A stretch of 64,000 nt of DNA, from positions 12,616 through 76,615 of the IMG/VR virus record IMGVR_UViG_3300036846_000738. One strand, given 5' to 3'. The position numbers and the translations under genes are program-made. Positions 23,426-60,493 of this stretch are shown piece after piece. Below the pieces are notes generated by a model, which was not told the DNA's origin, searched no databases, and was given only the letters and a program-made list of their open reading frames with translations. The stretch's first letter is position 1, and the number at the start of each line of letters is the position of its first letter. This DNA comes from a virus.

Positions 23426-25660
23426 TCACCAAGTAACGCCAGCGATCCACGCCACGACGCCGGAGCGCCGCATCGTCCAGTTCAGCGGCAGAATGAGCCG
23501 CAACGCCAGCGAGTCGGTCTGGAACATCGACATGGCCGGAGCTGCTACAACTGGCGGAGTGCCAACCGAGGCGAGCTGCAGCGGGTTGGTGTCTTCCATG
23601 TGCAGCGTGGCCTGATCACTGATCTCGAACCGCGGAGCATCGCCCGCGACCGAGACGTAGTCGGCCGCATCAAGACAGATCACTGTGCCAAGCGGCACCG
23701 TGCCGGACTGGATCAGCGGCCTGCCATTCAGTTTGCCCGCGTTGATTTCCTCCCGGAACGGGAACAGCCCGGACGGATTCGGCGGCTGAATGAACCCGAT
23801 CGAAAGCGCCTGTTGCGGGTTCATGATGAAGACCATGTTGCGGATGTTTCCGTTGGTGGCCGTCAGAATGGCGCCGCTCAGTTGCTTGAGATCGCCGACG
23901 AGGGCAGCGAAGGCCCCGTTCGTGATCGGCGTGGGTGTCAGACCAGACACGCCGTTGCGCAGACCGGGCGGCCGAATCGCGGTCGCTGGGTTGACATCGA
24001 GCAAGACGGTGTCGATCGAGACCGCGGTGTCCTGCTGAATGGCGTCACGCAGCAGTCCTTCAATGGCGGGCACAGAGTGCTCATCCATCTCCCTAGTCCA
24101 CGTCGATATGACGGCCATTTTCTTGGGCGTCAGCGTCTGGCTGGCGAACCCCGCCTGACGCACCGGAATCGGCGCGCCTTCGCCGACGAACGATCCGGCG
24201 ACGGTGGGGGTCAGATTGCGGGTCGGAATGATGATCCGACCATTGCGCCCGAAGCTGAGCTTCAGCCCCAGCGCCGACAGCGACGGGAAAACCGAAGCCG
24301 GGAGCAGGGTCGGCATCAGATCGGTGACAATCTGCTGCACCAGTTCCGCGGCCCAGCCCGAGACCGTGGTCATCGCCGGAGCGGATGCCGCTTTCAGGGT
24401 CAGGTCGCAAACCGCCTTGGTGGCTTCGTCGTCGCCATAGATTTTCTGGCGGGCTTCGTCGATCGAGACGTTCATCGAGCGCGCCATCGCGCGAACGGTG
24501 CCCGCCCGAACCAGAAACTCAAGCGGCTCCAACTTCTTCGGCGGCAGACTGAACGGCCGACGCTCGCCGTTCCGGAGGACGACGCTGTGGGTCGGCTGAT
24601 GCTCATCGTCTTCGATGGATTTCGCCGCCCGGAGTTCGGATTGCTTCAGCGTGGTGTAGAGTTCGTCCTGATCGGCAATCCTCTTGTTGATTTCCTTGGT
24701 GGTTTCGAGATCGGCGTCGGTGACGTTGGCATCGTCAACCGCTTCCAGATGCGCCATCAACTGATCGCGCAATTGGACTAGCCGCTGTTCGCATTCCTGT
24801 ATTCTTTTCGTGAGGGGTGACATTGTCCTGTTCTTTCTGACAGGAGACGTTTCGGCTTGCCCGCCGTTCGAACCGCGGCGACCGACGACGCTTAGGTCTT
24901 TTTTGTTGCCTTGCTCGGCAAAGACCCTGTCGATGGTGTCACGGGAGATGTTGAGCGACTTTGCAATCGCTAATGCATTCGGATTGGCCGGGATCGCGAC
25001 CAGTGAGGTCTCGACCAGTTCGGTTCGCTTGAAGCGCAGACCGTCGCCGTTCTTGGTCAGCGGCTCGGATTGCTTCGGCACAAAACCGACCGACACGGCG
25101 CGCAGCACGTTCTGCTCGACCAGCGAGATGATCTCGTTGATCCGGGCCGACGTTCCTTTCTTGGCGAGCTGCAGATGGCCGCGCAGTGCGCCGTTGACGG
25201 TCCGCAAATTGCGCCATGTGCCGATCGGGAAATCGCTGCGGTGATTAAACAGCGCCACCGGGTTTTTCTTGAAATTTTCCAAATCCCAACCCTCGGCCTC
25301 GATCACATCGCCCATCCGATCCGGCGTCGCGTCGGACAACACAAATTCGAGACCGTTGCCTTCGGAGACGTGGGTCTTGTGCAGCACCGCGCGGGCGCCA
25401 GTGCGCTCCTCCCATGCCAGTTGGCAGGCGTCCTCGTCGCCATCTTCGGCCATGCAACGATCCATGAAGTCCTCTTGGCTTTCGTCATCTTCCGGCGTGC
25501 ATTGCTTGGTCAGGGCCTTGTCCTTGTTGCGCCAGATGTCGAGACAGATCGCGACCGCCTGATCCTGCGGACGCTTGCTGTCGCCGGTGCCGATCATCTC
25601 GGGCACACACCTCGCGCTGAACTCTGATTGGCTTTCGCCCGGCTTCGGTTTCATTGGCAT
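23426..25660 (-). CDS. Prohead protease - major capsid protein fusion (HK97 fold)
   Basis: DRMGDVI, NPVALFNH, SVGF.P, ETSLVAIPANPNA protease motifs; FVGEGAPIP, LTPKK, SMFQTDSLALR capsid motifs; GGAGG RBS. Confidence 0.95.
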   Translation of the reverse strand: MPMKPKPGESQSEFSARCVPEMIGTGDSKRPQDQAVAICLDIWRNKDKALTKQCTPEDDESQEDFMDRCMAEDGDEDACQLAWEERTGARAVLHKTHVSEGNGLEFVLSDATPDRMGDVIEAEGWDLENFKKNPVALFNHRSDFPIGTWRNLRTVNGALRGHLQLAKKGTSARINEIISLVEQNVLRAVSVGFVPKQSEPLTKNGDGLRFKRTELVETSLVAIPANPNALAIAKSLNISRDTIDRVFAEQGNKKDLSVVGRRGSNGGQAETSPVRKNRTMSPLTKRIQECEQRLVQLRDQLMAHLEAVDDANVTDADLETTKEINKRIADQDELYTTLKQSELRAAKSIEDDEHQPTHSVVLRNGERRPFSLPPKKLEPLEFLVRAGTVRAMARSMNVSIDEARQKIYGDDEATKAVCDLTLKAASAPAMTTVSGWAAELVQQIVTDLMPTLLPASVFPSLSALGLKLSFGRNGRIIIPTRNLTPTVAGSFVGEGAPIPVRQAGFASQTLTPKKMAVISTWTREMDEHSVPAIEGLLRDAIQQDTAVSIDTVLLDVNPATAIRPPGLRNGVSGLTPTPITNGAFAALVGDLKQLSGAILTATNGNIRNMVFIMNPQQALSIGFIQPPNPSGLFPFREEINAGKLNGRPLIQSGTVPLGTVICLDAADYVSVAGDAPRFEISDQATLHMEDTNPLQLASVGTPPVVAAPAMSMFQTDSLALRLILPLNWTMRRSGVVAWIAGVTW

Positions 25661-25721
25661 CGCAAATTCCTCCACGCTTTCAGTGGGTTGGTATCATGTG
25701 CGAAAAGTCTGATATGACCCC

Positions 25722-25750
25722 TTGACGTATAGGCCGAAATGGCCTACATC
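25722..25750 (+). promoter_or_regulatory. Promoter/operator repeat copy 1
   Basis: TTGACG-TATAGGCCGAAATGGCC(17)-TACATC. Confidence 0.8.
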
Positions 25751-25769
25751 AGGGTTGAAAGGAAACCTG

Positions 25770-26567
25770 ATGACGCTGTTCAATCGCCACGGCCAAGAAC
25801 ATCACGGCCCGCACGCGCTCGACGCCAAGGGCGCCGCCTACATCGTTCGCGCCCGGCTGTGCAGGCGGTGCGGTGGCGCTGGCGGCTCCGAGGCTTGGCG
25901 CCACACCGGCTACACCTGCTACGATTGCGGTGGCCGCGGGTCCTGCGGCACTGAAACCGTCAAGCTCTACTCGGCCGAGCAACTGGCGAAGCTGAACGCC
26001 CGCAAGGCCAAGGCGGACGCCAAGCGCGCCGCCGCCGCCAAGGCCAAGGCCGACAAGGCCGCCGCGGAAGCCGCGGCCAATGCGGAAGCCTTCCGCGCCG
26101 CGCACGCCGAGCTGATCGCCAAGTCGGCGCCTCACATGGCCAACGAGTTCATCGGCGACGTGATGGGCCGGGCGCTGGCGAAAAACGACATCAGCGAAAA
26201 ACAGGAGGCCGCGGTCCTCGCTGCGGTTGAGCGGATCGAGGCGCGGGCGGTCGTGGCCGCCGCATCCAACCATGTCGGCACGGTCGGCAAGCGGTTCGAT
26301 GTCGCGGTCACGGTCGACCGGGTCGCCTCTTTCGCCCGGCCCGCGTTCCGCGGCTACGGCGCCATGGAAACGGTCTGGATCGTCACCATGCGCGACGCCG
26401 ACGGCAACGCGATCGTCACCAAGTCCTCGGTGTTCTCTCCGGAAAAGGGCGAGCGGTTCACGCTGCGCGCCACGGTCAAGGAGCACTCCGAGTACAACGG
26501 CGAAAAGCAAACCATCGTCAACCGGGCAAAGATTATTGAGCCCGCAACAGGAGGAAGTGTGAAGTGA
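25770..26567 (+). CDS. Zn-finger (CxxCxGxG x2) plus C-terminal OB-fold-like protein
   Basis: GAAAGGA RBS; CRRCGGAG, CYDCGGRG; HVGTVGKR...ATVKEHSEYNGEKQT. Confidence 0.75.
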   Translation: MTLFNRHGQEHHGPHALDAKGAAYIVRARLCRRCGGAGGSEAWRHTGYTCYDCGGRGSCGTETVKLYSAEQLAKLNARKAKADAKRAAAAKAKADKAAAEAAANAEAFRAAHAELIAKSAPHMANEFIGDVMGRALAKNDISEKQEAAVLAAVERIEARAVVAAASNHVGTVGKRFDVAVTVDRVASFARPAFRGYGAMETVWIVTMRDADGNAIVTKSSVFSPEKGERFTLRATVKEHSEYNGEKQTIVNRAKIIEPATGGSVK

Positions 26568-26857
26568 TCAAGGTCAAATATTCCAGCGTCGACGGCTACC
26601 GCAAAGTGAAGTCATTCAAGACGCTCAAGGGCGCGCGCAAGTACGCGCAATTTATGATCGGCAAGAACCCCGACATGGGCAGCAGCTATGCCGTCAGCAA
26701 CGACGGCATCGGCAAAATCGAAATCGGCGCCGGGGCCGCGCTGGCCGATTTGTTCGGCGACGAGCGCGAGGGCGAAGAGGCTCCCGGTTTCGACAGCCCG
26801 CGGGCGCCGGAATGGACTGGCTTCGATAGTTCCGAAATCGACATCACGGAACCGTGA
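26564..26857 (+). CDS. Hypothetical protein
   Basis: GGAGG RBS; stop sits at the next repeat. Confidence 0.7.
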   Translation: MIKVKYSSVDGYRKVKSFKTLKGARKYAQFMIGKNPDMGSSYAVSNDGIGKIEIGAGAALADLFGDEREGEEAPGFDSPRAPEWTGFDSSEIDITEP

Positions 26858-26868
26858 TATACGTCCTC

Positions 26869-26897
26869 TTGACGTATAGGCCGAAATGGCCTACATT
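26869..26897 (+). promoter_or_regulatory. Promoter/operator repeat copy 2
   Basis: TTGACG-TATAGGCCGAAATGGCC-TACATT; hairpin 26907-26933 follows. Confidence 0.85.
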
Positions 26898-26947
26898 AGG
26901 CCTGTTGGGAACGGGCGATTAGCGCCGGTTCCCGGAAAGCCCCAACC

Positions 26948-27106
26948 ATGAAACACGCCGTGATGACCCTCGCCGCCCTCGAAGCCGCGCTCTACGCGCT
27001 CTACGCCACGGCCAGCCTTGAAGAGGCGGTGCTCGCCTACCGCGCCGAGCTGGCCCACGAATACCGCGCCCGGACCGGAACTTGGTTTGCTGCCCGTTAT
27101 TACTGA
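26948..27106 (+). CDS. 52-aa hypothetical protein (below ORF-track cutoff)
   Basis: MKHAVMTLAALEAALYALYATASLEEAVLAYRAELAHEYRARTGTWFAARYY; fills the space between repeat copies 2 and 3. Confidence 0.65.
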   Translation: MKHAVMTLAALEAALYALYATASLEEAVLAYRAELAHEYRARTGTWFAARYY

Positions 27107-27115
27107 TACGACCTC

Positions 27116-27144
27116 TTGACATATAGGCCATAATGGCCTACATT
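27116..27144 (+). promoter_or_regulatory. Promoter/operator repeat copy 3
   Basis: TTGACA-TATAGGCCATAATGGCC-TACATT; hairpin 27154-27176 follows. Confidence 0.85.
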
Positions 27145-27195
27145 GAACCTGTAGGGATCGCGATGGTCGCGGCCCCGGAAAAACGAAAGGACCCC

Positions 27196-27636
27196 ATGTC
27201 CGAGTATGGAAGCCTCCGCGAAAAGATCGCGGCAGAATCGGAAGCCCGCAAGATCAAGTACGCGGCTTTCGAGGTGGCTTACGCAAAGGCCGCCGCGGCG
27301 GGCAAGGCCGCCGGTGAGGCCGCGATGCCTTGCCCGATGATCGTCCAACAGCGCGCGTCGCCGCTCAATGACAACTCGGTGGTGGTGCAGCAGTGGCGCG
27401 TGCCCGAGGGCATGTGCGGCTTTGCTTGGGTCACGGTCTCTCCCGGCAACTGCGCGTTCGCGAATTGGCTCAAGAAGAACAAGTTCGCCAGCAAGGCCTA
27501 CGGTGGCGGCGTCCAAATCTGGATCAACGCCTTCAATCAGTCGGTCGAGCGAAAGGAAGCCTGCGCCAACGCGATGGCTGCGGTGCTGCGCGAAGAACTC
27601 GGCGTCAAGGCCTTTAGCGGTTCGCGATTGGACTGA
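27196..27636 (+). CDS. Conserved-looking phage hypothetical protein (CGFAWV motif)
   Basis: GAAAGGACCCC RBS; GMCGFAWV...QSVERKEA.A.A...SRLD. Confidence 0.75.
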   Translation: MSEYGSLREKIAAESEARKIKYAAFEVAYAKAAAAGKAAGEAAMPCPMIVQQRASPLNDNSVVVQQWRVPEGMCGFAWVTVSPGNCAFANWLKKNKFASKAYGGGVQIWINAFNQSVERKEACANAMAAVLREELGVKAFSGSRLD

Positions 27637-27673
27637 CCCGACCCGTGGGGCGGCGGCGGCGAGCCCACCTAAA

Positions 27674-27737
27674 GCCTCGCCTGCCTAGCCTCGCCAAAAC
27701 CCGGCCGAGCCCCGCCGCGCCTATCCGCACCTTGCCT
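27674..27737. repeat. Degenerate 5-nt periodic (CC-NNN) tract
   Basis: About 13 CC dinucleotides spaced ~5 nt apart in an intergenic gap. Confidence 0.55.
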
Positions 27738-27778
27738 CCGCCATCTTGCACGAAAGCTCGTAGAAACTGAAAGGAAAA

Positions 27779-28126
27779 ATGAAAATGAAAGTCTACTCAA
27801 GCCCGATCCCGGCGCCGGAATATGACTACGCCAATTACGACCGCGACAAGGTCATGGCGGCAGAGGACGAGCATAGCGTCAAGCTCAAGGCGTGGCTGCT
27901 GGCCAACGGCTACAACGGCAAGCGCACCGGCGAGATCGCCAGCTTCCCGATCGCCGACGGCTACGCCTCCTACATGCTCGGCGACGGCAAGAAGTCCTGC
28001 CTGATCCACCTGCCCTATGGCGACGCCTACAACTATCCCGACGTGCGGTTCCTGCCGAAGGCCGAAGTGCTCAAGCGGATCGACTCCAGCAAGCGCATGG
28101 CGGCCCTGTTTGCCAAAAAATCGTAA
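27779..28126 (+). CDS. Hypothetical protein
   Basis: GAAAGGA RBS; FPIADGYASYM...LIHL..GDAY. Confidence 0.75.
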   Translation: MKMKVYSSPIPAPEYDYANYDRDKVMAAEDEHSVKLKAWLLANGYNGKRTGEIASFPIADGYASYMLGDGKKSCLIHLPYGDAYNYPDVRFLPKAEVLKRIDSSKRMAALFAKKS

Positions 28127-28135
28127 TACGACCTC

Positions 28136-28164
28136 TTGACGTATAGGCCACAATGGCCTAGCTT
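28136..28164 (+). promoter_or_regulatory. Promoter/operator repeat copy 4
   Basis: TTGACG-TATAGGCCACAATGGCC-TAGCTT; hairpin 28174-28196 follows. Confidence 0.85.
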
Positions 28165-28217
28165 GAACTTGCAGGGACCGCGGTAGTCGCGGTTCCGGGA
28201 ACCTCGAAAGGACCCGA

Positions 28218-28421
28218 ATGTCTTGGAAATCGGAAGTGATCGCTGATAGCAGCGGCAAGTGGGCAGGCAACGCGCTGCGCTTCGCCACCAAGGAAGAGGC
28301 AGAGCGCTACGTCGGCGACCTCTCAATGCGCTGGCTGGCGGTGCGCGAAACCCGCGCGGTCGAGAGTGACGAGCCGGTCAACTACGCCATCGTCGAAAAC
28401 GTCCTCACGGCGCTGAGCTGA
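28218..28421 (+). CDS. Hypothetical protein
   Basis: GAAAGGACCCG RBS; WAGNALRFATKEEAE. Confidence 0.75.
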   Translation: MSWKSEVIADSSGKWAGNALRFATKEEAERYVGDLSMRWLAVRETRAVESDEPVNYAIVENVLTALS

Positions 28422-28424
28422 TCG

Positions 28425-28619
28425 ATGGCCAGAAAACCGAGTGCAAAGAAACTGGCAGAGGCGCGGATCAACCGCGCCGTCGTCGGGTTCCAAATCCCGA
28501 TGCTGTCAATCCCGAAACTGTATCGGGCGCTGGAAGCGGCGATCGCTCTCAACATGTCTGACGCTGAATTGAAGGCGGTGGTCGCCGCCTTCCCCCGCGT
28601 GATCACACTGGAGCAATGA
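28425..28619 (+). CDS. Hypothetical protein
   Basis: Tightly packed in cassette. Confidence 0.6.
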   Translation: MARKPSAKKLAEARINRAVVGFQIPMLSIPKLYRALEAAIALNMSDAELKAVVAAFPRVITLEQ

Positions 28620-28620
28620 A

Positions 28621-29244
28621 ATGGGCTGGACCTTCTATCACAAGCCGAAGGGCATCAAGGCGATCGACGCGATCACGCGCGAGCTAGGCCCCGCCTTTAT
28701 GGCACAGCGTTTCGTCGTCGCCTCGGCCACGATCAACGCGGTCCATATCGTCGCGAAATATCATGAGCCGGACAGCAAGGTCTATGTCCCCGACGCCGAC
28801 GGCATGGTGCGCGCAATCCTCGTGTTCAGCATCCGGAGCGTGCCAAAGGCCAAGGACGGCCACAACTTCGGCTACAAGGACATGGATGAAGCCATGGGTC
28901 CTTACGGCTGCGAGTGCGCGCCCTCGATCATCGCCGCGGCCTCGCCGCTGCGCGATCCGATCGGACCGGAGCCGGAGTATTCGAGCCTGCGATCGGCGCG
29001 GGACTACCGCGAGCGCTCGCTGGCGATGTCCAAGGCCAAGGCCGCCAAGCGCGGCTTGAAGGTTGGCGCCAAGATCAAGCTGCCGAAACCGCTCTCGTTC
29101 TCCGGAATCCTGCTCGACGAGTTCGTCGTCGATCGCTGCCGGGTGCGCGGCCGGAAGGGCCAATCGACCGTGTTCCGGTCGGTCAAGACCGGCGGCCTGT
29201 ACGGCCTGTCCGCCCGCGATCTGGCGGAGGCGGTGGTCTCGTGA
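28621..29244 (+). CDS. DUF6927-like protein
   Basis: MGW start, FGYKDMDEAMGP..C.C motif. Confidence 0.65.
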   Translation: MGWTFYHKPKGIKAIDAITRELGPAFMAQRFVVASATINAVHIVAKYHEPDSKVYVPDADGMVRAILVFSIRSVPKAKDGHNFGYKDMDEAMGPYGCECAPSIIAAASPLRDPIGPEPEYSSLRSARDYRERSLAMSKAKAAKRGLKVGAKIKLPKPLSFSGILLDEFVVDRCRVRGRKGQSTVFRSVKTGGLYGLSARDLAEAVVS

Positions 29245-29444
29245 CCGACAATCTCGAAACCGAACTTGAAGCGCTGATCGACCGTCACGGCCTGACGCAC
29301 GTTGTCAACACCCTGTCGGTGATCTGCGCCGAGAAGGCCGACCACCTGATCGGCAATTGGCAGGACAAGAACGCTGCGAAAGTTTGGGCGGCTGACAGCC
29401 GCGTGCTCGACAAGGCCGCCCGCGCCATCCGATCCGATGGCTAA
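29241..29444 (+). CDS. Hypothetical protein
   Basis: GGAGG RBS, GTG start; LEALIDRHGL..V...ICAEKADHL..NWQD; stop at next repeat. Confidence 0.7.
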   Translation: MTDNLETELEALIDRHGLTHVVNTLSVICAEKADHLIGNWQDKNAAKVWAADSRVLDKAARAIRSDG

Positions 29445-29453
29445 TACGACCCC

Positions 29454-29482
29454 TTGACATATAGGCCGGAATGGCCTATATT
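29454..29482 (+). promoter_or_regulatory. Promoter/operator repeat copy 5
   Basis: TTGACA-TATAGGCCGGAATGGCC-TATATT. Confidence 0.88.
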
Positions 29483-29504
29483 GAGGTTGTCAGGAAAGTA
29501 AGCC

Positions 29505-30035
29505 ATGACCCACTACCTAGTTACCAAAGCCCTCGCGTTCGCCACCAAGGCGCACGAGGGCATGTTCCGTAAATGGTCCGGCGAGCCCTACATTGAGCAT
29601 CCCAAGCGGGTTGCCGTGCGGCTGTCGGCGCTGGGCTTCGGCCCCGAGGTGATCGCCGCCGCCTTCCTGCACGACGTGGTCGAGGATACCGCGACGACCG
29701 GCGCCGAGCTGGCCGCCGCGTTCGGCCCGGCCGTCGCCGCGCTGGTCGCGGAGGTCACCAAGCCCATCGTCCCCGGTGGCAACCGGGCCGCCCGAAAGGC
29801 CGCCTTCCGGGCGCATCTGGCGGGCTCGTCCTACGCTGGCGCCTCGATCAAGCTGTCCGACGAGATCGACAACTCAAGCGACGTCGCGGAGATGAACCCG
29901 CGCTTTGCCAAGGTCTATCTGCCCGAAATGTGCGCGGAACTTGCGGTGCTGGGCCACGGTCATCCCGAGCTGGTCACCAAGCTGACCGCCAACATCACCG
30001 CCGGATTGGCCAAGATCGCCGCTATGACGGCTTGA
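29505..30035 (+). CDS. Stand-alone RelA/SpoT-type HD hydrolase (small alarmone hydrolase/Mesh1-like)
   Basis: AH...RK..GEPYIEHP, AAFLHDVVEDT, EVT, IKLSD..DN. Confidence 0.85.
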   Translation: MTHYLVTKALAFATKAHEGMFRKWSGEPYIEHPKRVAVRLSALGFGPEVIAAAFLHDVVEDTATTGAELAAAFGPAVAALVAEVTKPIVPGGNRAARKAAFRAHLAGSSYAGASIKLSDEIDNSSDVAEMNPRFAKVYLPEMCAELAVLGHGHPELVTKLTANITAGLAKIAAMTA

Positions 30036-30060
30036 CATATAGGCCACAATGGCCTACATC
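30032..30060 (+). promoter_or_regulatory. Promoter/operator repeat copy 6
   Basis: TTGACA-TATAGGCCACAATGGCC-TACATC; its TGA is the stop of the HD gene. Confidence 0.85.
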
Positions 30061-30085
30061 GGGAGCGCAAGCAGAAAGGACCCCC

Positions 30086-30310
30086 ATGCCACGATATTAC
30101 GACGACGACTATTACGACCGGGACTATGACAGCGAAATCGAGTTCGCCGATCCCGGCGGCCGGTCTGCCTTGCGCGCCGCCAGCAAGACCAACCCGCGCA
30201 ACCTGCCCTGCCCCAACTGCGGCGCGAAGAACCGGCTGACGCCAGCCGATCGCGCGCTGGGCTACCAGTGCGATGCCTGCGCCGATCGCGCCGAACGGGG
30301 ACACGACTGA
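30086..30310 (+). CDS. Small Zn-finger protein with acidic N-terminus
   Basis: GAAAGGACCCC RBS; CPNC...CDAC. Confidence 0.75.
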   Translation: MPRYYDDDYYDRDYDSEIEFADPGGRSALRAASKTNPRNLPCPNCGAKNRLTPADRALGYQCDACADRAERGHD

Positions 30311-30311
30311 C

Positions 30312-30539
30312 ATGAGCGGTAAAATCAAAACCATCAAGCTGTCCTACCCGACGCCGAACTGGGCTCGTGATTTCGATCCCAAGGCGCCCGGCGCCGAGCC
30401 CAACGTCTACACAATTTTGCAGGTCACCGACTCGATCGAGTTCTCGCCCAAGCAGCAACTGCGCAAGGCACAGGTCGAAAGCCTGTGCGCCAGTCGCGAG
30501 TGGAAGGTGACCATCGTCCCGCCGCCGCCGAAAATATGA
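30312..30539 (+). CDS. Hypothetical protein
   Basis: ATG just after previous stop; stop at next repeat. Confidence 0.65.
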   Translation: MSGKIKTIKLSYPTPNWARDFDPKAPGAEPNVYTILQVTDSIEFSPKQQLRKAQVESLCASREWKVTIVPPPPKI

Positions 30540-30543
30540 CCCC

Positions 30544-30572
30544 TTGACATATAGGCCACAATGGCCTATATC
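30544..30572 (+). promoter_or_regulatory. Promoter/operator repeat copy 7
   Basis: TTGACA-TATAGGCCACAATGGCC-TATATC. Confidence 0.85.
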
Positions 30573-30597
30573 AGGATTGAAAGAGAGAAGGACCCGA

Positions 30598-30957
30598 ATG
30601 AAGATTTTCACCAAAGACGTTGTGGCGCGACTGGCCGCCAATGGTCGCGCCACCCGACTGGCGCAGCAAGCTGGCGAGAGCGAGCCGGACCACAATCCGG
30701 TGCTCAAGGTGTTCAACCCGGCCGGAGCCGCCACATGGCTGCTGACCGAGTCCGACCCCGGTGATCCGGATTGCCTGTTCGGCCTCTGCGACCTCGGCAT
30801 GGGCTCGCCGGAGCTGGGCAACGTGCTGCGCTCCGAGCTGGAAACCGCCAAGGGCCGCTTCGGTCTCGGCATGGAGCGCGACCGCTGGTTCAAGGCGGAT
30901 AAGCCGCTGTCGGCCTACACCGCCGACGCCAGCCGCAAGCAACGGATCGACGCATAA
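30598..30957 (+). CDS. DUF2958 family protein
   Basis: PVLKVFNP.GAATWLLTE.D....LFGLCDLGMG.PELG.V...EL...ERD..F. Confidence 0.85.
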   Translation: MKIFTKDVVARLAANGRATRLAQQAGESEPDHNPVLKVFNPAGAATWLLTESDPGDPDCLFGLCDLGMGSPELGNVLRSELETAKGRFGLGMERDRWFKADKPLSAYTADASRKQRIDA

Positions 30958-31181
30958 TGGTCCCGAGCAAAACACTTGAAATCGTCGGCACCGGTCAGGC
31001 TGCCGCTCAAATCAGGTTCAAGGCGCACGAGAGCTACGCGCTCGACGGCATCGACTTGAACGACCTCGCCATCCTCGCCATCCGGCTCAACTCCCGCATG
31101 GTCGATGGCGACGAATTACGCGACTGGCAGAACAGGATCAACCTGATGCTGTCGAACGTCGCAACACAGGAAGGCAAATAA
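30957..31181 (+). CDS. Hypothetical protein
   Basis: Translationally coupled (TAATG). Confidence 0.55.
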   Translation: MVPSKTLEIVGTGQAAAQIRFKAHESYALDGIDLNDLAILAIRLNSRMVDGDELRDWQNRINLMLSNVATQEGK

Positions 31182-31544
31182 ATGGAACTGCGCGAACCAA
31201 ACTACCACGAGTTCACCCATCTGCCGCAGTGGACCCAAGCCATTTGGATCGGCAAGTCAGGCGACGGCAAGCTCGCGAATGAGTTCGACCCCTACAAGTG
31301 GTCGGGCGACAAGCCGCCGCCCGCGATCGGCGAAAAGATCAAGGTGCTGTGCAACGGCTTGGGCAAGGGCACGGTGCTGCGCTACTTCGCCGAATATGGC
31401 TGGCTCGGCATGATCGTCCAGTTCGACAAGCCGCCGAAATGGTATCGGCAGCAGAACGGCGACAAGCCCGGCCACGTTTTCGGTATCGACCTCAACCCCC
31501 GCAGCAAACTGCTGCCTCAACCTGCAAAGGAATCCCGTGTCTGA
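31182..31544 (+). CDS. Hypothetical protein
   Basis: GGAAGG RBS; WSGDKPPPAIGE. Confidence 0.7.
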   Translation: MELREPNYHEFTHLPQWTQAIWIGKSGDGKLANEFDPYKWSGDKPPPAIGEKIKVLCNGLGKGTVLRYFAEYGWLGMIVQFDKPPKWYRQQNGDKPGHVFGIDLNPRSKLLPQPAKESRV

Positions 31545-32100
31545 ATATCTCTCCTGTGCCGAGACCGCCAAGCTGGTGCGTGCAGCACTCAAGAAGGCCT
31601 TCCCCGGCATCAAGTTTTCGGTGCGCTCACACGTCTACTCTGGCGGTGCCTCGATCAATGTCCGCTGGACCGACGGTCCATCGAGCAAGGCGGTCAAGGC
31701 GATGGCCGGGGCCTACTCCGGCGGCAACTTCGACGGCATGATCGACATGGCGTTTTCGAACTCGTCGTGGCTGATGCCGGACGGATCGGCGGCGCTTGCT
31801 TCCTCGCCGGGCTCCACTGGCTCGATGGGCGTCTATGCGCCGTATGACCACAAGGCCCCGGCGCCCGGCGCCCGCAAGGTCCGCTTCGGAGCGGACTTCG
31901 TGTTCTGCGACAAGGACTGGTCGATCGAGACCTACACCACCGCGGCGAAAAAGGTCTGCGCCGATTACGGCGTCGAGCTGCCGGAGATCAAAATCAGCGG
32001 CGGCCCCTACATCGCCAACGTCTGGAGCATCAAGGTGCCCAACGCCGACACCGATCTCGGCACCCTGATCAACCGCGAATTGCAGCAGGAGAACGCATGA
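31537..32100 (+). CDS. LPD29-like (large polyvalent protein-associated domain) protein
   Basis: TAKLVRAALKKAFPGIKFSVRS..YSGG.SI.V.WTDGP...FDGMID. Confidence 0.75.
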   Translation: MSEYLSCAETAKLVRAALKKAFPGIKFSVRSHVYSGGASINVRWTDGPSSKAVKAMAGAYSGGNFDGMIDMAFSNSSWLMPDGSAALASSPGSTGSMGVYAPYDHKAPAPGARKVRFGADFVFCDKDWSIETYTTAAKKVCADYGVELPEIKISGGPYIANVWSIKVPNADTDLGTLINRELQQENA

Positions 32101-32624
32101 CGCCGAACAATGACTACGGGCTGTTGATCGAGCCGATCAACCGCTACGGCGCCGAATATATCGATGCGCGCGTCGTGCGCCGCGACCCGAAATACGAACA
32201 CCCGATCGGCTGCCCCAGCGACGGCGATGTTTTCTTGGGCTACGGCACGCCGAAACATTTGCTTGGCTTGGTGCTGGACGGGCTCGGCATGTACGGTTTC
32301 GTCACCGACGGCAACGATCCCACCTTCATCGGCACTGAGATCGAATTTCGCGAGACCTACGGCATCAACGAACCCAAGCTGCGGCGGATGCTGAAAACGA
32401 TGCGGCGCGTCAACGCCCGAATCGCCAAGGATCAAGCGCGCGAGCCGGGCGACAAATTCACGTCACTGGCCGCGGCGCTAAAGCTCTCGTTCGCGGTCGA
32501 GCGGATCGCCCGGCGCGGCGATGGCCGTGACTGGCGCTGGATGTCAATCGCCGAAGGCCGCAACCGCTACCGCGCCCTGATCGACACCGCGGTCGCCGCC
32601 GCCGTGTCGCGGAAGATCGCTTAA
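32097..32624 (+). CDS. Hypothetical protein
   Basis: AGGAG RBS, ATGA overlap. Confidence 0.7.
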   Translation: MTPNNDYGLLIEPINRYGAEYIDARVVRRDPKYEHPIGCPSDGDVFLGYGTPKHLLGLVLDGLGMYGFVTDGNDPTFIGTEIEFRETYGINEPKLRRMLKTMRRVNARIAKDQAREPGDKFTSLAAALKLSFAVERIARRGDGRDWRWMSIAEGRNRYRALIDTAVAAAVSRKIA

Positions 32625-32642
32625 CCCATGGAGAATACAGGA

Positions 32643-32999
32643 ATGACCAAATTCAAAATAATGCTGGCGGCAGCTTTGCTCGCTGCCAGCTCGCTCCACG
32701 CGCTTTCTGCTTCGGAGAAAGAGGAAGAGGTCGCCAGCCGATCTGCAGCAATCCTGCTACTGGCCATCAACAAGTGCGGTCCAAGCAAGTTCGACAGTCT
32801 TCGCGCGATGGACCAACTCGACACCGTGTACAGCGCGACCGGCGTCAACCCGGCCAACTATCCCGAGGGCGAGTGGACGCGGAAGATTTTCTTCACCATG
32901 AGCCAGACGGATTTCCTGCGGAAAGTTCGCGACGACGATCCGCCGATGGTGAAAGCCTTCTGTAGTTCCATCGCCGAAAGGTTTCCAAACAAAGACTGA
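32643..32999 (+). CDS. Hypothetical exported protein
   Basis: MTKFKIMLAAALLAASSLHALSA signal-peptide-like N-terminus. Confidence 0.6.
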   Translation: MTKFKIMLAAALLAASSLHALSASEKEEEVASRSAAILLLAINKCGPSKFDSLRAMDQLDTVYSATGVNPANYPEGEWTRKIFFTMSQTDFLRKVRDDDPPMVKAFCSSIAERFPNKD

Positions 33000-33019
33000 C
33001 AACACGGGCGCCAACCGCC

Positions 33020-33050
33020 GGGGCGGGTTGATCTCAGGATCGCCCGCCCC
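33020..33050. terminator. GC-rich hairpin, possible terminator at array end
   Basis: GGGGCGGGTTGATC...GATCGCCCGCCCC; no clear U tract on +. Confidence 0.4.
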
Positions 33051-33090
33051 AAACCTTATTTGCCACAACCCCTTAACCCACGGCCCATTC

Positions 33091-33119
33091 TTGTCTTTTT
33101 TGACAGAATGGCCTAGATA
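33091..33119 (+). promoter_or_regulatory. Degenerate copy of array promoter ahead of HTH gene
   Basis: TTGTCT-17 nt ending GAATGGCC-TAGATA, same register as the repeat; right half-site only. Confidence 0.5.
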
Positions 33120-33127
33120 AGTGATTC

Positions 33128-33331
33128 ATGATGACCGCCGAACAATATCGAGCCGCGCTAGAGCGACTGCAAATGACTCAGGTCGCCGCTGGCGAGCTGT
33201 TTCGCGTTGGTGCGCGAACCTCCCGGCGCTGGGCGCTGGACGAGGCTCGCGTTCCCTTCGCCGTAGCCGCATTGCTGCATTTAATGCTAAAGAAGCGACT
33301 CAAGCCGCGGGATTTACTCGCGCTGGAGTAA
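33128..33331 (+). CDS. Small XRE/Cro-type HTH regulator
   Basis: YRAALERLQMTQVAAGELFRVGARTSRRWA....VP. Confidence 0.8.
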   Translation: MMTAEQYRAALERLQMTQVAAGELFRVGARTSRRWALDEARVPFAVAALLHLMLKKRLKPRDLLALE

Positions 33332-33338
33332 GCACACC

Positions 33339-33512
33339 ATGGCCAAGGAAAAAGAGGCCGCTCCCAAAATTCCGCCGACTGAGATTCGCGACGGCAACGG
33401 CAACCTGATTCCGCCGGAGCATTTCGATGACGATCAGCGCCCGACTGGCGACGTCGACAAGTCGCCCGGCTCGCTCTACGACCATCTGGTCCAGCGCGAC
33501 AAGAAAAAGTAA
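33339..33512 (+). CDS. 57-aa hypothetical protein convergent on zeta-toxin gene (below ORF-track cutoff)
   Basis: GGAG RBS; MAKEKEAAPKIPPTEIRDGNGNLIPPEHFDDDQRPTGDVDKSPGSLYDHLVQRDKKK. Confidence 0.65.
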   Translation: MAKEKEAAPKIPPTEIRDGNGNLIPPEHFDDDQRPTGDVDKSPGSLYDHLVQRDKKK

Positions 33513-34661
33513 TCACTTGCTCCGCGCGTGCAGCTTCGGCGACGAGCCCATGTTGTCGTAGACTTCCCAGTAATCCATGTCGTTGCGGTGACTGTCGAAG
33601 GTGTGTTCGTTGCTCACCGAACTCAGGGAATATTCCGGCGCCACGAACCGGCCCTTGCCGTTCTTCTCGTTGCCGTGGACGAAGCGCCCCAGTGCGCGCT
33701 CGGCGGCGGTCGCGGGACTGGCGTACATGTAGTGGCCTGAAATCTTGTAGCCCGCCGCCTTGTACTGCGCGATCCGCTTGGCGAGCGAGGTGTTGCTTTT
33801 CAGCGTCGCGTCGACGATGACGTTCAACTTGTTGTCGCGCGCGTACTGTTCCATCACCTCGCCGACGTGGCTCGCTTCCTCGTGCAGCAGCGAGGCGTTC
33901 CAGCCCTTGTATTCCGGCAGGCTTTCCTTGACGTCGTCGTTGTTGATGTACGCCGCCTTGCTGGCATCGACGGTGCCATTTTTGCCGGTGAACCAGCCCT
34001 TGCCGGAGCCGCCCCGGCCGCCAAGAATGTAGAGCGTTGGCTTCTCGCCCGCCGCTGGCGCCGCCGCCTTGACCACTTCCGGCGACATCAGCTTGTCGAC
34101 GATCTGCCGGTGAACCGGCAGACGGTCCGGCGCCCAGTGCCCGTTCGGCAACTTGTAGCCGCCCGCGCTTTGCTGACCGTCGGTCGGGAAGTCTTCGGAC
34201 AATTTCTGGCGTGCCGCGGCGTCCTGCTCGCGGGAGCCCGGCACTTTCGCGTAGAGATCATCGAGCGTCACATCCTCGATCTTCAGCAGCGACGACGCCG
34301 AGGTCGGATCGCTGGCATGATCCTCACCGCCTCCGCCACCACCATCGCCGCTACTGAACTGGCCACCTTGCGGGCTGCCGCCGGGCTCGTGATGCGGATT
34401 GAACTTTTGCAGCAGCGCCTGCGACCGGCTCTTGGTGCGCGCCCATTGGCTCTTGAGCCGGGCCGCTTTCTGTTCGGCCTGCTGTTCGGCGAGCCACTTC
34501 GCGCGGTTGCGCGCGCGAATCGGCGTCATGATCTTTTGGTCGATCGGATAGTCGACCGGGCCGATGATCGCCGCGTGCAGATCGGCGTCCTGCATTGTGC
34601 CGTCCTCGTCGAGATAGAAAAATTCCTGACCTTTAGGCGGCATGCTGTCTCCTGCCGACAT
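33513..34661 (-). CDS. Zeta-toxin family P-loop kinase with N-terminal extension
   Basis: Walker A GGRGGSGKG, INNDDVK..LPEY, HEEAS, NVIVDATL, A.ERA..RF..GRFV. Confidence 0.85.
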   Translation of the reverse strand: MSAGDSMPPKGQEFFYLDEDGTMQDADLHAAIIGPVDYPIDQKIMTPIRARNRAKWLAEQQAEQKAARLKSQWARTKSRSQALLQKFNPHHEPGGSPQGGQFSSGDGGGGGGEDHASDPTSASSLLKIEDVTLDDLYAKVPGSREQDAAARQKLSEDFPTDGQQSAGGYKLPNGHWAPDRLPVHRQIVDKLMSPEVVKAAAPAAGEKPTLYILGGRGGSGKGWFTGKNGTVDASKAAYINNDDVKESLPEYKGWNASLLHEEASHVGEVMEQYARDNKLNVIVDATLKSNTSLAKRIAQYKAAGYKISGHYMYASPATAAERALGRFVHGNEKNGKGRFVAPEYSLSSVSNEHTFDSHRNDMDYWEVYDNMGSSPKLHARSK

Positions 34662-46961: not shown

Positions 46962-46962
46962 T

Positions 46963-58889: not shown

Positions 58890-59690
58890 ATGGTGTTGAC
58901 CGCGGATCAAATCACGCGGAGACAGTTCAAGGTTTCCGCCTCGATGCTGCCGATCCTGATGCACGGCGACGAAGCCGCGCTGCGGCGGCTGTACGCCGAA
59001 GAGATCGGCCTGCTCGAACGCGAGCCTCCCAATTATGCGATGCTGTTCGGTTCTTACGTGGAACCGTTCATACTCAACTTCCACGAGAGTGATACGGGTC
59101 ACCCGATCAGTCGCCGCGGCGAAGTCATCGACCATCCCACCATTCCGGAATTCTGTTGCACCCTCGATGGTTACCGCGCCCACGACGACGCGGTGATCGA
59201 AACGAAATTTCTCTCGACCTACCGCGCCAAGGAAGAATTCGTTCCCTACTACTACCCGCAAGTGCTGGCGCAGATGCGGTGTGTCGGGGCGGAACGCGGC
59301 ATCCTGCTGGTCGCTAAAGGCACCTCGCCGCCGGTCGAGTATGAGATCACGCCCGACGCCGACTACGAAGCCACCATGTGGGCAAGGGTCGAGGCGTTTC
59401 GGATGTGCCTGCGGACCTTCACCCCGCCGGTCCCGATGCCGCGCGTCGTGCCGCCCGACCAGTGGCGGACCGTTGATCTATCGCAAGAGCCGATGCCGAA
59501 CTGGGGCCACCCACTGATGCCGATGCTGCAGCTCTACGAGGACACCCGTGAGGCAGCCGAGATGCACGATCAGGCAGGCCGGGAAGCGCGCGCGCTGGTG
59601 CCAGACGATGTTGGTGTCGTGCTGGCGGGCGATCACAAATTGTCACGCAACCGCAAGGGCAATCTTGCAATCACGAGGGTCAGGTCATGA
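58890..59690 (+). CDS. YqaJ/lambda-exonuclease-like recombination nuclease
   Basis: SAS, G..VEP.I, CTLDG, IETK, YYPQV..QM. Confidence 0.8.
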   Translation: MVLTADQITRRQFKVSASMLPILMHGDEAALRRLYAEEIGLLEREPPNYAMLFGSYVEPFILNFHESDTGHPISRRGEVIDHPTIPEFCCTLDGYRAHDDAVIETKFLSTYRAKEEFVPYYYPQVLAQMRCVGAERGILLVAKGTSPPVEYEITPDADYEATMWARVEAFRMCLRTFTPPVPMPRVVPPDQWRTVDLSQEPMPNWGHPLMPMLQLYEDTREAAEMHDQAGREARALVPDDVGVVLAGDHKLSRNRKGNLAITRVRS

Positions 59691-60493
59691 ACCAGCTCGC
59701 CACGCTCGATCCCCGCGCCAACCTCGAACTCGCAAGGGCGTTCGCCGATTCCAAGATGGTGCCGGAGCACTTCAAGAAGTCGGTCGGCGATTGCTACATC
59801 GCCATCAATCTCGCGCACCGCTACGGCATGGAGCCGTGGATGCTGATGCAGGAGATGTACATCATCCAAGGCCGCCCGATGATGAGCGGCAAGCTCGCCA
59901 CCGCGATCCTCAACAACTCGCTCGCCGAGCCGCTGCGACCGACCTATGCAGGCAAGGACGACGATCGCGAGATCACCCTGACCGGCCGCCCGGAGGGCTC
60001 GGCGCCGCTCTCGGTCACGCTCAAGGTCAAGGACGCCAAGACCGCCAACGAACAATGGAAAAAGAATCCGGATCAAATGCTGATGTATGCCGCCGCCCGG
60101 ATGTGGGGTCGGCGCTACACGCCGGACCTTATTCTCGGCATCGTGTTTGACGACGAGGAGATCACCTCGGGCGCGACCTTGGTGCCGAGCGCTCCGACCA
60201 CCCCGATTGCGGGGCCGCAACCGACAAGCGCCGACGCCCCGTTCGATCCGCACACCGGCGAAGTCGGCGTGGTGGCAAGGGGGCCTGACGAGAAATGGTA
60301 CGACTGGGGCGCGCGTCTCGTCACCACGATCCGCAAGGCCCACGACATCGACACAATCGATCAGTGGCTCGCCGCCAACGCCGAGACGCTGGCGCTGTGC
60401 CAGAAGGAAAGCGCCAAGGTTGCGGGCAACATCGCCACCGCCGTCACCCAGTACAAGCTCGACCTCGTGCGCCGGGAGGATTCGGCAACATGA
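59687..60493 (+). CDS. RecT/Bet-like ssDNA annealing protein (putative)
   Basis: S.MVP.HF....DC, IQGRP, W.K.P.QML.Y.A.R.W.R...PD...G; coupled to exonuclease. Confidence 0.7.
   Translation: MNQLATLDPRANLELARAFADSKMVPEHFKKSVGDCYIAINLAHRYGMEPWMLMQEMYIIQGRPMMSGKLATAILNNSLAEPLRPTYAGKDDDREITLTGRPEGSAPLSVTLKVKDAKTANEQWKKNPDQMLMYAAARMWGRRYTPDLILGIVFDDEEITSGATLVPSAPTTPIAGPQPTSADAPFDPHTGEVGVVARGPDEKWYDWGARLVTTIRKAHDIDTIDQWLAANAETLALCQKESAKVAGNIATAVTQYKLDLVRREDSAT

Follow-up and report, generated by a model that had tools for sequence, protein, structure and literature searches.

Repeated promoter-like units with a conserved palindrome punctuate variable small-gene arrays in a temperate soil myophage

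The genome studied here, that of a 76.6-kb myophage of Bradyrhizobium-type bacteria from soil, temperate and equipped with a tyrosine integrase, carries ten copies of a short intergenic unit in which a near-consensus host-type promoter is overlaid by a palindrome of fixed sequence. The copies fall into two small-gene arrays, one of 7.8 kb and a smaller one 34 kb distant, with none elsewhere in the genome. On balance, we favor the reading that the units are early promoter-operators repressed by a small helix-turn-helix (HTH) protein of the A6 family, in the style of anti-CRISPR (acr-aca) operons, in a hyperplastic region like that of the promoter-early stem-loop (PeSL) cassettes of T4-type phages. 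Such a design would combine two known phage designs, promoter/stem-loop cassettes and anti-CRISPR operon control.

Units and gene cassettes

The window, a stretch of 64,000 nucleotides (positions 12,616 to 76,615 of IMG/VR record IMGVR_UViG_3300036846_000738), was scanned with TTGACN-TATAGGCC-N5-GGCCTA allowing up to 2 mismatches, using 100 shuffles as the control. Seven matches were found, all on the plus strand and with 0 mismatches (25722, 26869, 27116, 28136, 29454, 30032, and 30544), exactly where the initial annotation had placed them, and the pattern was absent from all 100 shuffles. The exact form TTGACR-TATAGGCC-N5-GGCC-TA likewise occurs seven times, with none expected by chance. Each unit comprises a -35, a 17-nt spacer occupied by the palindrome TAGGCC-N5-GGCCTA, and a -10 of the form TA(C/T/G)(A/C)T(T/C), and leads to a purine-rich ribosome-binding site followed by a start codon; predicted +1 sites lie 6 to 8 nt past the -10, and the candidate operator is the 21-bp TATAGGCC-N5-GGCCTATA. 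The N5 had been described as free sequence; it is not, and in this genome it reads NNAAT. As had been claimed, six of the seven units have the upstream gene's stop codon in their conserved 5′ flank or -35, and the first unit retains the flank although it has no upstream plus-strand gene. A GC hairpin is found in the 5′ leader of three units, and shared N5 and leader sequence define subgroups of units. The features are as follows, in window coordinates.

23426..25659, minus strand: left flank, prohead protease fused to major capsid protein; likely start ATG 25659, ribosome-binding site GGAGGA; the start is 62 nt away from the unit 1 -35
25710..25750, plus strand: unit 1; flank TGATATGACCCC, -35 TTGACG, TATAGGCC-GAAAT-GGCC, -10 TACATC; predicted +1 near 25757
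25770..26857, plus strand: cassette 1; 265-aa protein with a Cys-rich N terminus, matching functionally uncharacterized phage families, overlapped by a 97-aa gene (family A5)
26857..26897, plus strand: unit 2; upstream stop TGA 26855-26857; predicted +1 near 26904; leader hairpin 26907-26933
26948..27106, plus strand: cassette 2; 52-aa open reading frame unique to this phage
27104..27144, plus strand: unit 3; upstream TGA 27104-27106 within the flank; predicted +1 near 27151; leader hairpin 27154-27175
27196..28126, plus strand: cassette 3; 146-aa backbone gene (A0, found in every relative) plus a unique gene of 115 aa (27779-28126)
28124..28164, plus strand: unit 4; upstream TAA 28124-28126 within the flank; predicted +1 near 28171; leader hairpin 28174-28196
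28218..29444, plus strand: cassette 4; 67-aa A13, 64-aa A2, 207-aa DUF6927 protein A3 (28621-29244; 2.6e-9), and a 67-aa gene (29241-29444)
29442..29482, plus strand: unit 5, which matches best; TTGACA-17-TATATT and a perfect palindrome with 8-bp arms; upstream TAA 29442-29444; predicted +1 near 29489
29505..30035, plus strand: cassette 5; 176-aa HD_4/RelA-SpoT-type hydrolase domain protein (7.6e-16), backbone family A1
30020..30060, plus strand: unit 6; its -35 TTGACA contains the HD gene stop, TGA 30033-30035; predicted +1 near 30067
30086..30539, plus strand: cassette 6; 74-aa protein with weak zinc-ribbon matches and an 88-aa gene (A14)
30532..30572, plus strand: unit 7; upstream TGA 30537-30539 within the flank ATATGACC; predicted +1 near 30579
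30598..32999, plus strand: cassette 7, a long operon; DUF2958 protein (30598-30957; 3.7e-34), 74 aa, 120 aa, LPD29 protein (31537-32100; 4e-23), 175-aa backbone A4 (32097-32624), and a 123-aa protein whose hydrophobic N-terminal stretch is a putative signal peptide
33020..33050, plus strand: GC-rich hairpin GGGGCGGG...CCCGCCCC with a partly T-rich tail; read from sequence alone as the likely end of the cassette 7 operon
33513..34661, minus strand: right flank, 382-aa match to phage minor-head families, with a Zeta_toxin/P-loop kinase domain
58890..60493, plus strand: YqaJ-like exonuclease and RecT-like annealing protein, machinery for short-homology recombination that the phage itself encodes

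These positions bear out the description of a small-gene array punctuated by units and antisense to head genes. The HD_4, DUF6927, DUF2958, and LPD29 assignments of the cargo hold, with the zinc-ribbon matches being weak, and the cassette 5 protein resembles a small alarmone hydrolase. PADLOC gave no defense-related result, and no cargo gene matched any characterized inhibitor; an anti-defense role, suggested by family associations, had been overstated.

The three further units, which lie beyond the window at genome positions 3556, 4265, and 4494, have right arms GACC or GCCC against a left arm GGCC and are thus asymmetric.

Conservation and gene shuffling among relatives

Nine relatives, phage or prophage records from soil metagenomes and from Bradyrhizobium and Pseudolabrys genomes, were compared with this phage. 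Across the ten records, 58 units were found, all on the array strand, with a search matrix that was trained on this genome and therefore inflates apparent conservation. Their consensus, C-TTGAC-N17-CTATAT, is the alpha-rhizobial sigma-70 consensus, given as CTTGAC-N17-CTATAT for Sinorhizobium meliloti (PMC2873474), and a G is conserved at the expected +1 in 49 of the 58, in agreement with the initial view of near-consensus host-type promoters carrying a conserved palindrome. To judge by their sequence, the units would be active as promoters. Outside this genome (48 units), the arms were 93% and 94% identical to the consensus versus 82% for the -35 hexamer, and arm sequence was retained where the -35 had decayed to TGGACA, TTGCCA, or TGGTCG. 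This conservation exceeds the demands of the polymerase, which places no such constraint on the spacer, and selection on the palindrome across diverged relatives is supported. In a 9.7-Mb Bradyrhizobium genome, the palindrome was confined to a prophage region of ca. 50 kb.

Units were more alike within genomes than between them (66.6% versus 60.9% identity), and the nearest neighbor of a unit lay in the same genome in 19 of 58 cases (expected, 5.6), which fits exchange or duplication among units. The within-genome likeness, together with the N5 and leader sequences common to subgroups, would also be expected if the units were recent duplicates of one strong promoter and leader, with a functionless palindrome symmetric by descent. 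We regard this as very improbable, given that the arms are retained although flanking proteins have diverged to 45 to 70% identity, that they are better kept than the -35 hexamer, and that symmetric double changes exist. The latter all affect arm position 7, namely, GGTC/GACC twice (L024), GGGC/GCCC twice (L025), and GGAC/GTCC (L020). One-sided mismatches at this position were present in 20 of the 58 units and mismatches at the outer pairs in 12; the former, together with the asymmetric arms of the small array, indicate that a strictly symmetric operator is not required.

In all eight relatives holding both flanks, the array lies antisense between the capsid gene and the minor-head gene. It is therefore ancestral in this phage family and not a recent insertion, as the term "inserted" had implied. 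Gene content between units differed strongly among relatives, as anticipated, with families A5, A13, A14, A16, and A25 in different slots in different phages (A5 occupies another slot in three relatives, A13 is relocated in L015, and A14 sits in another slot in L020). Breakpoints at the units, also proposed initially, were only weakly enriched: 86% of unit-bearing junctions were broken versus 77% of the others (odds ratio, 1.8; pairs nonindependent), in relatives whose protein identity of 45 to 70% is too diverged for junction mapping. We infer that the units mediate cassette shuffling. The repeated units, of 40 to 70 nt, would give the upstream gene its stop codon and the downstream gene its ribosome-binding site and would offer short homologies for cassette exchange by the RecT/YqaJ system, a possible agent, or by the host; unit-mediated exchange would explain why gene content is scrambled among relatives. 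The absence of a dedicated integrase holds for the array itself but not for the phage, which has the tyrosine integrase and this recombination pair.

Likeness to promoter-early stem-loop cassettes

PeSL cassettes are known from the T4-type phages phi1/RB49, PST, and nt-1 (PMC2839356, PMC4122927). The likeness drawn in the initial annotation stands: in both systems, there are many copies of a short intergenic unit that spans the upstream stop, a sigma-70-consensus early promoter, a ribosome-binding site, and the start of a small uncharacterized gene; a dyad lies between the -35 and -10 or over the -10; and the units cluster in a hyperplastic region whose gene content varies among relatives. The contrast had been overstated, since PeSL stem-loops also lie most often between the -35 and -10 (PMC2839356). 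The differences are that the sequence and position of the dyad are fixed here but vary in PeSL stems, which are G/C runs; that the upstream flank is ATAYGACC here and AT rich in PeSL; that the host phage here is a temperate alphaproteobacterial myophage unrelated to T4; and that a dedicated HTH family accompanies the arrays.

Such an identical layout (upstream stop, sigma-70 promoter, stem-loop, ribosome-binding site, and start codon) raises the alternative of a composite promoter/terminator, in which the palindrome works as a stem-loop of read-through RNA or single-stranded DNA, its sequence unread by protein, attenuating upstream transcription while each cassette has its own promoter and is shuffled as in T4-type phages. 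PeSL stem-loops terminate transcription in reporter tests (PMC2839356); folding energies of the units here range from -9.7 to -19.7 kcal/mol (z-scores as low as -4.7), and in some copies the pairing reaches the -35 and the leader. The five double changes at position 7 are compensatory, and no other terminators were found between cassettes. However, the stem is fixed in sequence and position in 58 copies despite the divergence of the phages' proteins, while PeSL stems vary in both and form five subclasses (PMC2839356). No U-tract follows the stem, which has just 6 to 8 bp, half of them A-T, and the mismatches at position 7 and the outer pairs also speak against pairing as its function. The exclusive tie to one HTH family would be left unexplained as well, and we consider this alternative possible but unlikely.

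A candidate HTH repressor

The following features lie downstream of the last cassette or, in the case of P0002, in the small array.

33091..33119, plus strand: degenerate eighth unit, promoter of the HTH gene; TTGTCT-17-TAGATA, with the right arm AATGGCCTA alone kept
33128..33331, plus strand: 67-aa HTH protein of family A6 (P0001), the units' candidate repressor; fold XRE/Aca2/MqsA-like, homodimer predicted
33339..33512, plus strand: 57-aa gene (A9), a conserved neighbor of the HTH gene; its stop adjoins that of the convergent minus-strand gene
genome 5444-5698: paralogue P0002, an A6 profile match, last gene of the small array's operon

The ATG of the HTH gene lies 8 nt past the -10 of the degenerate unit, so its mRNA is probably leaderless. 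This eighth unit is conserved in six relatives, and the promoter also carries an inverted repeat, TTGTC-N6-GACAA, beside the half unit; this repeat could be the cognate site of the HTH protein.

That the units are operator controlled gains from the distribution of A6, which is present in nine of the ten unit-bearing records. A profile search of the six-frame genome found one other gene only, P0002 (E value, 2.9e-9). In the 9.7-Mb genome of Bradyrhizobium sp. SRL28, there are just two matches, one 2.5 kb downstream of the unit at the prophage start and the second 3.5 kb beyond the final unit of the main array. The pairing of two clusters with A6 recurs in G007 and the Pseudolabrys prophage, and in all four records with two unit clusters, an A6 gene lies downstream of each.

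The A6 structure model (pLDDT, 89.9) was closest in fold to Aca2 of phage ZF40 (TM, 0.80; root mean square deviation, 1.0 Å; 26% identity), followed by HigA2, the HTH domain of MqsA, Aca10, and P22 c2, with E values that are weak (6e-3) because the domain is small. All of these are dimeric repressors acting on palindromic operators. Homodimer prediction scored 0.76 versus 0.08 for the best of three controls, with 100% contact agreement between runs and a partner pLDDT of 92; this mark was attained by 20 of 30 proteins solved as same-chain pairs and by 1 of 23 single-chain proteins, and the pass may reflect likeness to solved dimers only. The recognition helix barely varies among phages with GGCC, GGTC, or GGGC arms, and no covariation between regulator and operator was seen for the arm types compared.

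The palindrome could instead be the operator of another protein, a lysogeny repressor or other phage or host factor, that silences all accessory promoters in the lysogen, much like the C1 operators scattered over P1 or the repressor sites repeated in SPbeta, the small HTH genes regulating something else. The phage is temperate, ten near-consensus promoters would need silencing in the lysogen, the A6 promoter contains a separate inverted repeat, and a 156-aa HTH_3 protein of the Cro/CI type is encoded at genome positions 10163-10633. Nevertheless, homologues of this protein were missing from three of the four related phage records searched, and its matches in the Bradyrhizobium genome were far from the prophage; the early region contains a single divergent gene pair (minus strand, genome 8657-9058; plus strand, genome 9109-9654), which has no unit, and the A6 family tracks unit clusters one to one. 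We judge this reading to be unlikely.

Under the favored A6 reading, each unit would be a strong promoter for the host sigma-70 RNA polymerase, with the operator TA(TA)GGCC-N5-GGCC(TA)TA underlying the 17-nt spacer and the start of the -10. Upon infection or induction, the ten promoters would become active together and express about 20 to 25 small accessory genes from the two arrays. The small dimeric HTH proteins whose genes lie distally in the two arrays (P0001 and P0002) would then bind the palindromes and block the polymerase between the -35 and -10, shutting the arrays down or keeping them low, much as Aca proteins do at acr-aca operons. With its own leaderless promoter and half operator, the HTH gene of the large array could stay on while the others are shut.

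In acr-aca operons, anti-CRISPR genes are expressed from a strong promoter repressed by a distally encoded HTH protein, Aca (PMC6765145, PMC9410906). The systems share a near-consensus constitutive promoter, an inverted repeat in the core promoter, a small HTH gene located distally in the gene set, its modeled product here being closest in fold to Aca2, and a cargo of small variable genes of unknown function. A second repeat is nearby in some members; some relatives of this phage have a second, overlapping palindrome 15 bp upstream of the unit, comparable to IR2 of acr-aca promoters (PMC9410906). On the other hand, one regulator family here would control ten promoters, seven spread over 8 kb and three over 1 kb, instead of one, the cargo includes no known Acr, and the large-array HTH gene has its own leaderless promoter. 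The A6 protein lacks the C-terminal dimerization domain of Aca2 and is no sequence member of the Aca families with solved structures, with a profile search reaching only Aca2 and Aca10 (E values of 0.43 and 0.16).

Dispersed repressor-site regulons are found in other temperate phages, namely, the C1 operators of P1, the stoperators of mycobacteriophage L5, the SPbeta repeated element with MrpR, and the conserved inverted repeats of phiC31. In these, one phage repressor has many conserved sites genome-wide, several of them inside accessory or early promoters, and most of the sites can be separated from the promoter and are found in varied settings. Here, in contrast, site, promoter, flank, and leader form one repeated unit, and every copy heads a small-gene cassette in one of the two arrays.

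The repeated unit and its promoter

A pattern search of the window recovered the seven sigma-70-like promoter units, each with the palindrome TAGGCC-N5-GGCCTA in a 17-nt spacer, exactly where the initial annotation had placed them. With up to two mismatches allowed, TTGACN-TATAGGCC-N5-GGCCTA had only these seven matches in the window, all perfect and all on the plus strand, and 100 shuffled controls gave none. Among the aligned copies, the conserved block runs from ca. 12 nt 5' of the −35, where the flank reads (T/A)ATAYGACCYC, through the −10, and conservation returns weakly in the leader and ribosome-binding site. The stop of the upstream gene falls inside this flank or inside TTGACA in six of the seven copies, as had been claimed. 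The regulatory repeat is real, nonrandom, and conserved. Three further units, with right arms GACC or GCCC, lie before the window at genome positions 3556, 4265, and 4494, and a degenerate copy at window position 33091 retains the right arm alone. Beyond these ten units in two arrays and the degenerate copy, the palindrome was not found elsewhere in the genome. The smaller array and the two HTH genes associated with the arrays are as follows.

L022:3556-5701 (L022 is the whole viral genome), before the window: second, smaller array of three units with asymmetric putative operators, ending in the paralogous HTH gene P0002
Genome 5444-5698: P0002, HTH paralogue, final gene of the operon starting from the unit at genome position 4494
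Window 33128-33331, plus strand: P0001, 67-aa HTH protein, which with a 57-aa partner makes up the last genes of the window array

If the C immediately 5' of each hexamer is included, the unit consensus is CTTGAC-N17-CTATAT, identical to the sigma-70 consensus reported for Sinorhizobium meliloti (PMC2873474). A rhizobial consensus fits the host, since prophage relatives were located in two Bradyrhizobium genomes and one Pseudolabrys genome. There is a conserved G at the expected transcription start, and a search of the genome for a single-subunit RNA polymerase (PF00940) found none, which is weak evidence given that control genomes also gave no match. Together, these sequence features indicate that the units are very probably promoters of the host polymerase. 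We also considered a T7-like promoter, of which the flank TAATACGAC is reminiscent, but its spacing to TATAGG is off by 5 nt and the idea was rejected.

GC-rich hairpins stand at the start of the 5' leader in three of the seven units (window 26907-26933, 27154-27175, and 28174-28196). Their stems differ in sequence (−13.5 to −22.8 kcal/mol), leaders related to these are found in relatives, and the hairpins may act as mRNA-stabilizing 5' stem-loops. Every one of the seven units also contains GGCC-N5-GGCC, the SfiI recognition site, which is handy for mapping and probably without biological meaning.

The palindrome and its candidate repressor

Pattern scanning and protein-guided searches identified eight metagenomic phage contigs and a prophage of Bradyrhizobium sp. 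SRL28 as unit-carrying relatives. The matrix scan of relatives that the initial annotation had suggested found 58 units in ten records, all on the array strand barring reverse readings of the palindrome itself. In units outside this genome, the two arms were 93% and 94% identical to the consensus versus 82% for the −35; because the matrix was trained on the units of this genome, in which the −35 is as invariant as the arms, it inflates the absolute values, but the gap between arms and −35 is informative despite this bias. Along similar lines, TATAGGCC was retained beside decayed −35 hexamers, and within host genomes the palindrome was restricted to the prophage. Because polymerase places no constraint on the spacer sequence, the palindrome, as DNA or in its transcript, must, to judge from this conservation, be read by something other than polymerase. 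A literature search with the arm sequence returned primers only.

One possible reading of the palindrome is purely structural, as in the promoter-stem-loop (PeSL) elements, in which a stop, a promoter, a dyad, and a ribosome-binding site follow one another and the stem-loops, mostly between −35 and −10, act as terminators (PMC2839356). The units have the same layout and fold at −9.7 to −19.7 kcal/mol; like PeSLs, they are concentrated in two arrays of small genes whose cargo varies among relatives, and by sequence they carry the host sigma-70 consensus −35 and −10. In contrast to PeSLs, the flank is not AT-rich, and the stem is fixed in sequence and position. The stem is also short, half A-T, frequently mismatched, and followed by no U-tract. 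At arm position 7, for example, 33 of the 58 units had a C:G pair, 20 a mismatch on one side, and 5 a symmetric double change. A terminator scan of positions 25000 to 34000 gave 12 candidates against 9.8 in shuffles, that is, no enrichment. A hairpin alone would also leave the association with HTH genes, described below, unexplained. We therefore consider the purely structural reading unlikely, and to us the dyad resembles a protein-bound operator more than a simple hairpin, although the two roles are not mutually exclusive.

A candidate reader of such an operator belongs to the A6 family, which was present in nine of the ten unit-bearing records. BLASTP gave no alignment between P0001 and P0002; a profile of five A6 orthologues, however, matched the P0002 gene as the only other site in the six-frame genome (E value of 2.9e-9). 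Within the whole 9.7-Mb genome of SRL28, the family had exactly two matches, one 2.5 kb downstream of a unit at the prophage start and the other 3.5 kb beyond the last unit of the main array. Phage contig G007 and the Pseudolabrys prophage likewise have two unit clusters, each paired with an A6 gene. P0002 also bears a Lys/Arg-rich N-terminal extension.

The predicted structure of P0001 is an XRE-type HTH (pLDDT of 89.9), and its closest fold was Aca2 of phage ZF40 (TM score of 0.80; root mean square deviation of 1.0 Å), followed in order by HigA2, the HTH domain of MqsA, Aca10, and P22 c2. The homodimer prediction scored 0.76 versus 0.08 for the best of three controls; of the reference proteins, 20 of 30 known homodimers attained that mark, as did 1 of 23 monomers. 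Contact agreement between runs was 100% and the pLDDT was 92, and the pass may reflect mere likeness to solved similar dimers. On the grounds of co-occurrence, fold, and predicted homodimer, we propose the A6 HTH protein as a candidate repressor of the units. That the palindrome is the operator bound by this family is the reading toward which we lean, if only slightly. Another protein might instead own the operator, but given the pairing of A6 genes with unit clusters this seems quite improbable. A 156-aa HTH_3 (Cro/CI-type) protein encoded elsewhere in the genome was considered as binder and discarded, as it did not co-occur with the units.

The arrangement resembles that of acr-aca operons, in which a consensus promoter has an inverted repeat in its core, in some cases accompanied by another repeat, and a small HTH gene lies distally (PMC9410906; PMC6765145). 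Here, too, the promoter has a strong consensus, with the palindrome occupying its spacer and extending into the −10; in some relatives (L017 and L024) the −35 lies within a second palindrome, which overlaps the first and is placed 15 bp upstream; and the HTH gene is distal in both arrays and in relatives. Unlike the known cases, P0001 belongs by sequence to none of the Aca families that have a solved structure: against solved chains, the A6 profile gave E values of only 0.16 (Aca10) and 0.43 (Aca2), and the only Pfam and NCBIfam matches of P0001 were to the MqsA and VC1465 HTH families, all subthreshold. The VC1465 match (Xer recombination activation factors; E value of 5e-5, 23 bits against a cutoff of 70) probably reflects shared HTH similarity only. 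A 2026 survey of Aca proteins makes no mention of Bradyrhizobium or rhizobia.

The genes for P0001 and its partner are situated 3' of a GC hairpin and the degenerate unit. The P0001 promoter is kept in six relatives, and its mRNA is probably leaderless, because the ATG lies only 6 to 8 nt 3' of the −10. This promoter has an inverted repeat of its own over the −35, TTGTC-N6-GACA(A/G) (window 33091-33110), which is conserved in relatives; TTGTC-N6-GACAA had no other copy in the genome.

The units combine two known designs, those of PeSLs and acr-aca operons, in a lineage where neither was described. To our knowledge, hardly anything is known of how phages of Bradyrhizobium and related soil alphaproteobacteria regulate their genes or counter host defences. 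Across a whole family of such phages and prophages, accessory genes are marked by a fixed-sequence 41-nt unit, which comes with a candidate repressor that lends itself to straightforward tests of binding and reporter activity. The concept of regulatory cassettes repeated across a hyperplastic region, introduced with lytic T4-type phages, is thereby extended to an unrelated temperate lineage. Much as aca genes served to discover anti-CRISPRs, the unit and its HTH gene could together guide searches for new genes of anti-defence or host takeover.

Location of the array within the late genes

The virus record, from soil and rated complete, is 76,615 bp long, the window covering bases 12616 to 76615. 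The phage encodes a tyrosine integrase, a YqaJ/RecT pair, and an RfaH-like protein, and its minus-strand genes include those for a sheathed tail, a portal, a large terminase, and a protease-capsid fusion. The first and last 168 nt of the record (L022:1-168 and window 63833-64000) match except at one position, either as a circular assembly overlap or as prophage end repeats, and span a gene that by eye resembles the AlpA/excisionase type. Two minus-strand genes bear on the setting of the array.

Window 33513-34661, minus strand: Zeta_toxin/P-loop kinase-domain protein, matching phage minor-head families and located among the head genes
Window 46407-47045, minus strand: NusG/RfaH-like protein, 212 aa (Pfam NusG, 6.5e-10; NCBIfam RfaH, 5.4e-14, below cutoff)

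In all eight relatives with both flanks, the array is flanked by the protease-capsid gene on one side and by the zeta-like or the following minus-strand gene on the other, and runs in the opposite orientation. Given this common arrangement, the location is ancestral, and the array is not an insertion as the initial annotation had described it. The capsid-protease gene starts at ATG 25659 with a GGAGGA ribosome-binding site, and the −35 of unit 1 is only 62 nt away, which leaves no space for a capsid promoter; at the other end, the last stop of the array (33510-33512) abuts that of the convergent zeta-like gene at 33513. With no capsid promoter or intervening terminator possible, transcription of the late genes may traverse the full array in antisense. 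The NusG/RfaH-like gene lies upstream of the genes for packaging and head on the minus strand, and its product could serve the phage as a processive antiterminator of the long late operon. The Zeta_toxin-domain protein could be a virion-packaged enzyme.

A broader and speculative scheme, which we regard as doubtful, would make both arrays one regulon, in which an Aca-like repressor family controls a multipromoter, recombination-shuffled anti-defence set that is embedded in the late operon and faces the opposite way. Transcription of the late genes, possibly with its processivity aided by the RfaH-like protein, would then cross the entire array antisense, and repressor-mediated silencing of the seven strong opposing promoters would act as an early-to-late timing switch.

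Cargo genes and rearrangement

The Pfam assignments made for the cargo (HD_4, DUF6927, DUF2958, and LPD29) proved correct. Most cargo proteins had no match or matched only families of unknown function; the same was true of PHROGs, with the exception of the phosphohydrolase, and PADLOC matched none of ten cargo proteins to a defence system. The HD protein consists of a RelA/SpoT-type hydrolase domain standing alone and resembles phage small alarmone hydrolases, one of which, PaSpo of phage SSU5, neutralizes toxSAS toxins (PMC9712102). An anti-defence or host-takeover role of the cargo is a reasonable suggestion.

The array has a conserved backbone, namely, a unit followed by families A0-A2-A3 (DUF6927), a unit followed by A1 (HD), a further unit, and then A4, A6, and A9. 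The slots between backbone genes are filled differently in each phage, and families A5, A13, A14, A16, and A25 change slots among phages. Thus, of the gene gain and loss at repeats that had been anticipated, the variable content and the relocation of families held up, but breakpoints were only weakly enriched at units: in a crude count with nonindependent pairs and rough ORF calls and unit placement, 86% of junctions with a unit versus 77% of those without were rearranged (odds ratio, 1.8). Units were more alike within than between genomes, with the nearest neighbor in the same genome 19 times versus 5.6 expected, a pattern consistent with units being duplicated or exchanged, plausibly by means of the RecT/YqaJ pair.

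Searches for a relative close enough for junction mapping found none: megablast of positions 25000 to 34000 against deposited phages had no match, a metagenome pattern scan yielded one 2-kb contig only, and a locus search with a single protein recovered no relatives, an alignment query being needed to retrieve them. Contigs of three soil DNA runs, two of them perhaps the source sample, had loose ends at unit 5 that led to the leaders of the other units; we do not take these as evidence of recombinants and attribute them to assembly-graph branching from repeat collapse.

The more distant relatives L018 and L019 lack the TAGGCC unit and have another repeated intergenic unit before the same kind of genes. 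At L019:9122-11448 and L018:3424-5281, three to four copies of a GGCGCCC-CATGC-GGGCGCC hairpin with the leader TCAAGGGCAGATCGAAGCCCGGAGGGA precede homologous small genes.
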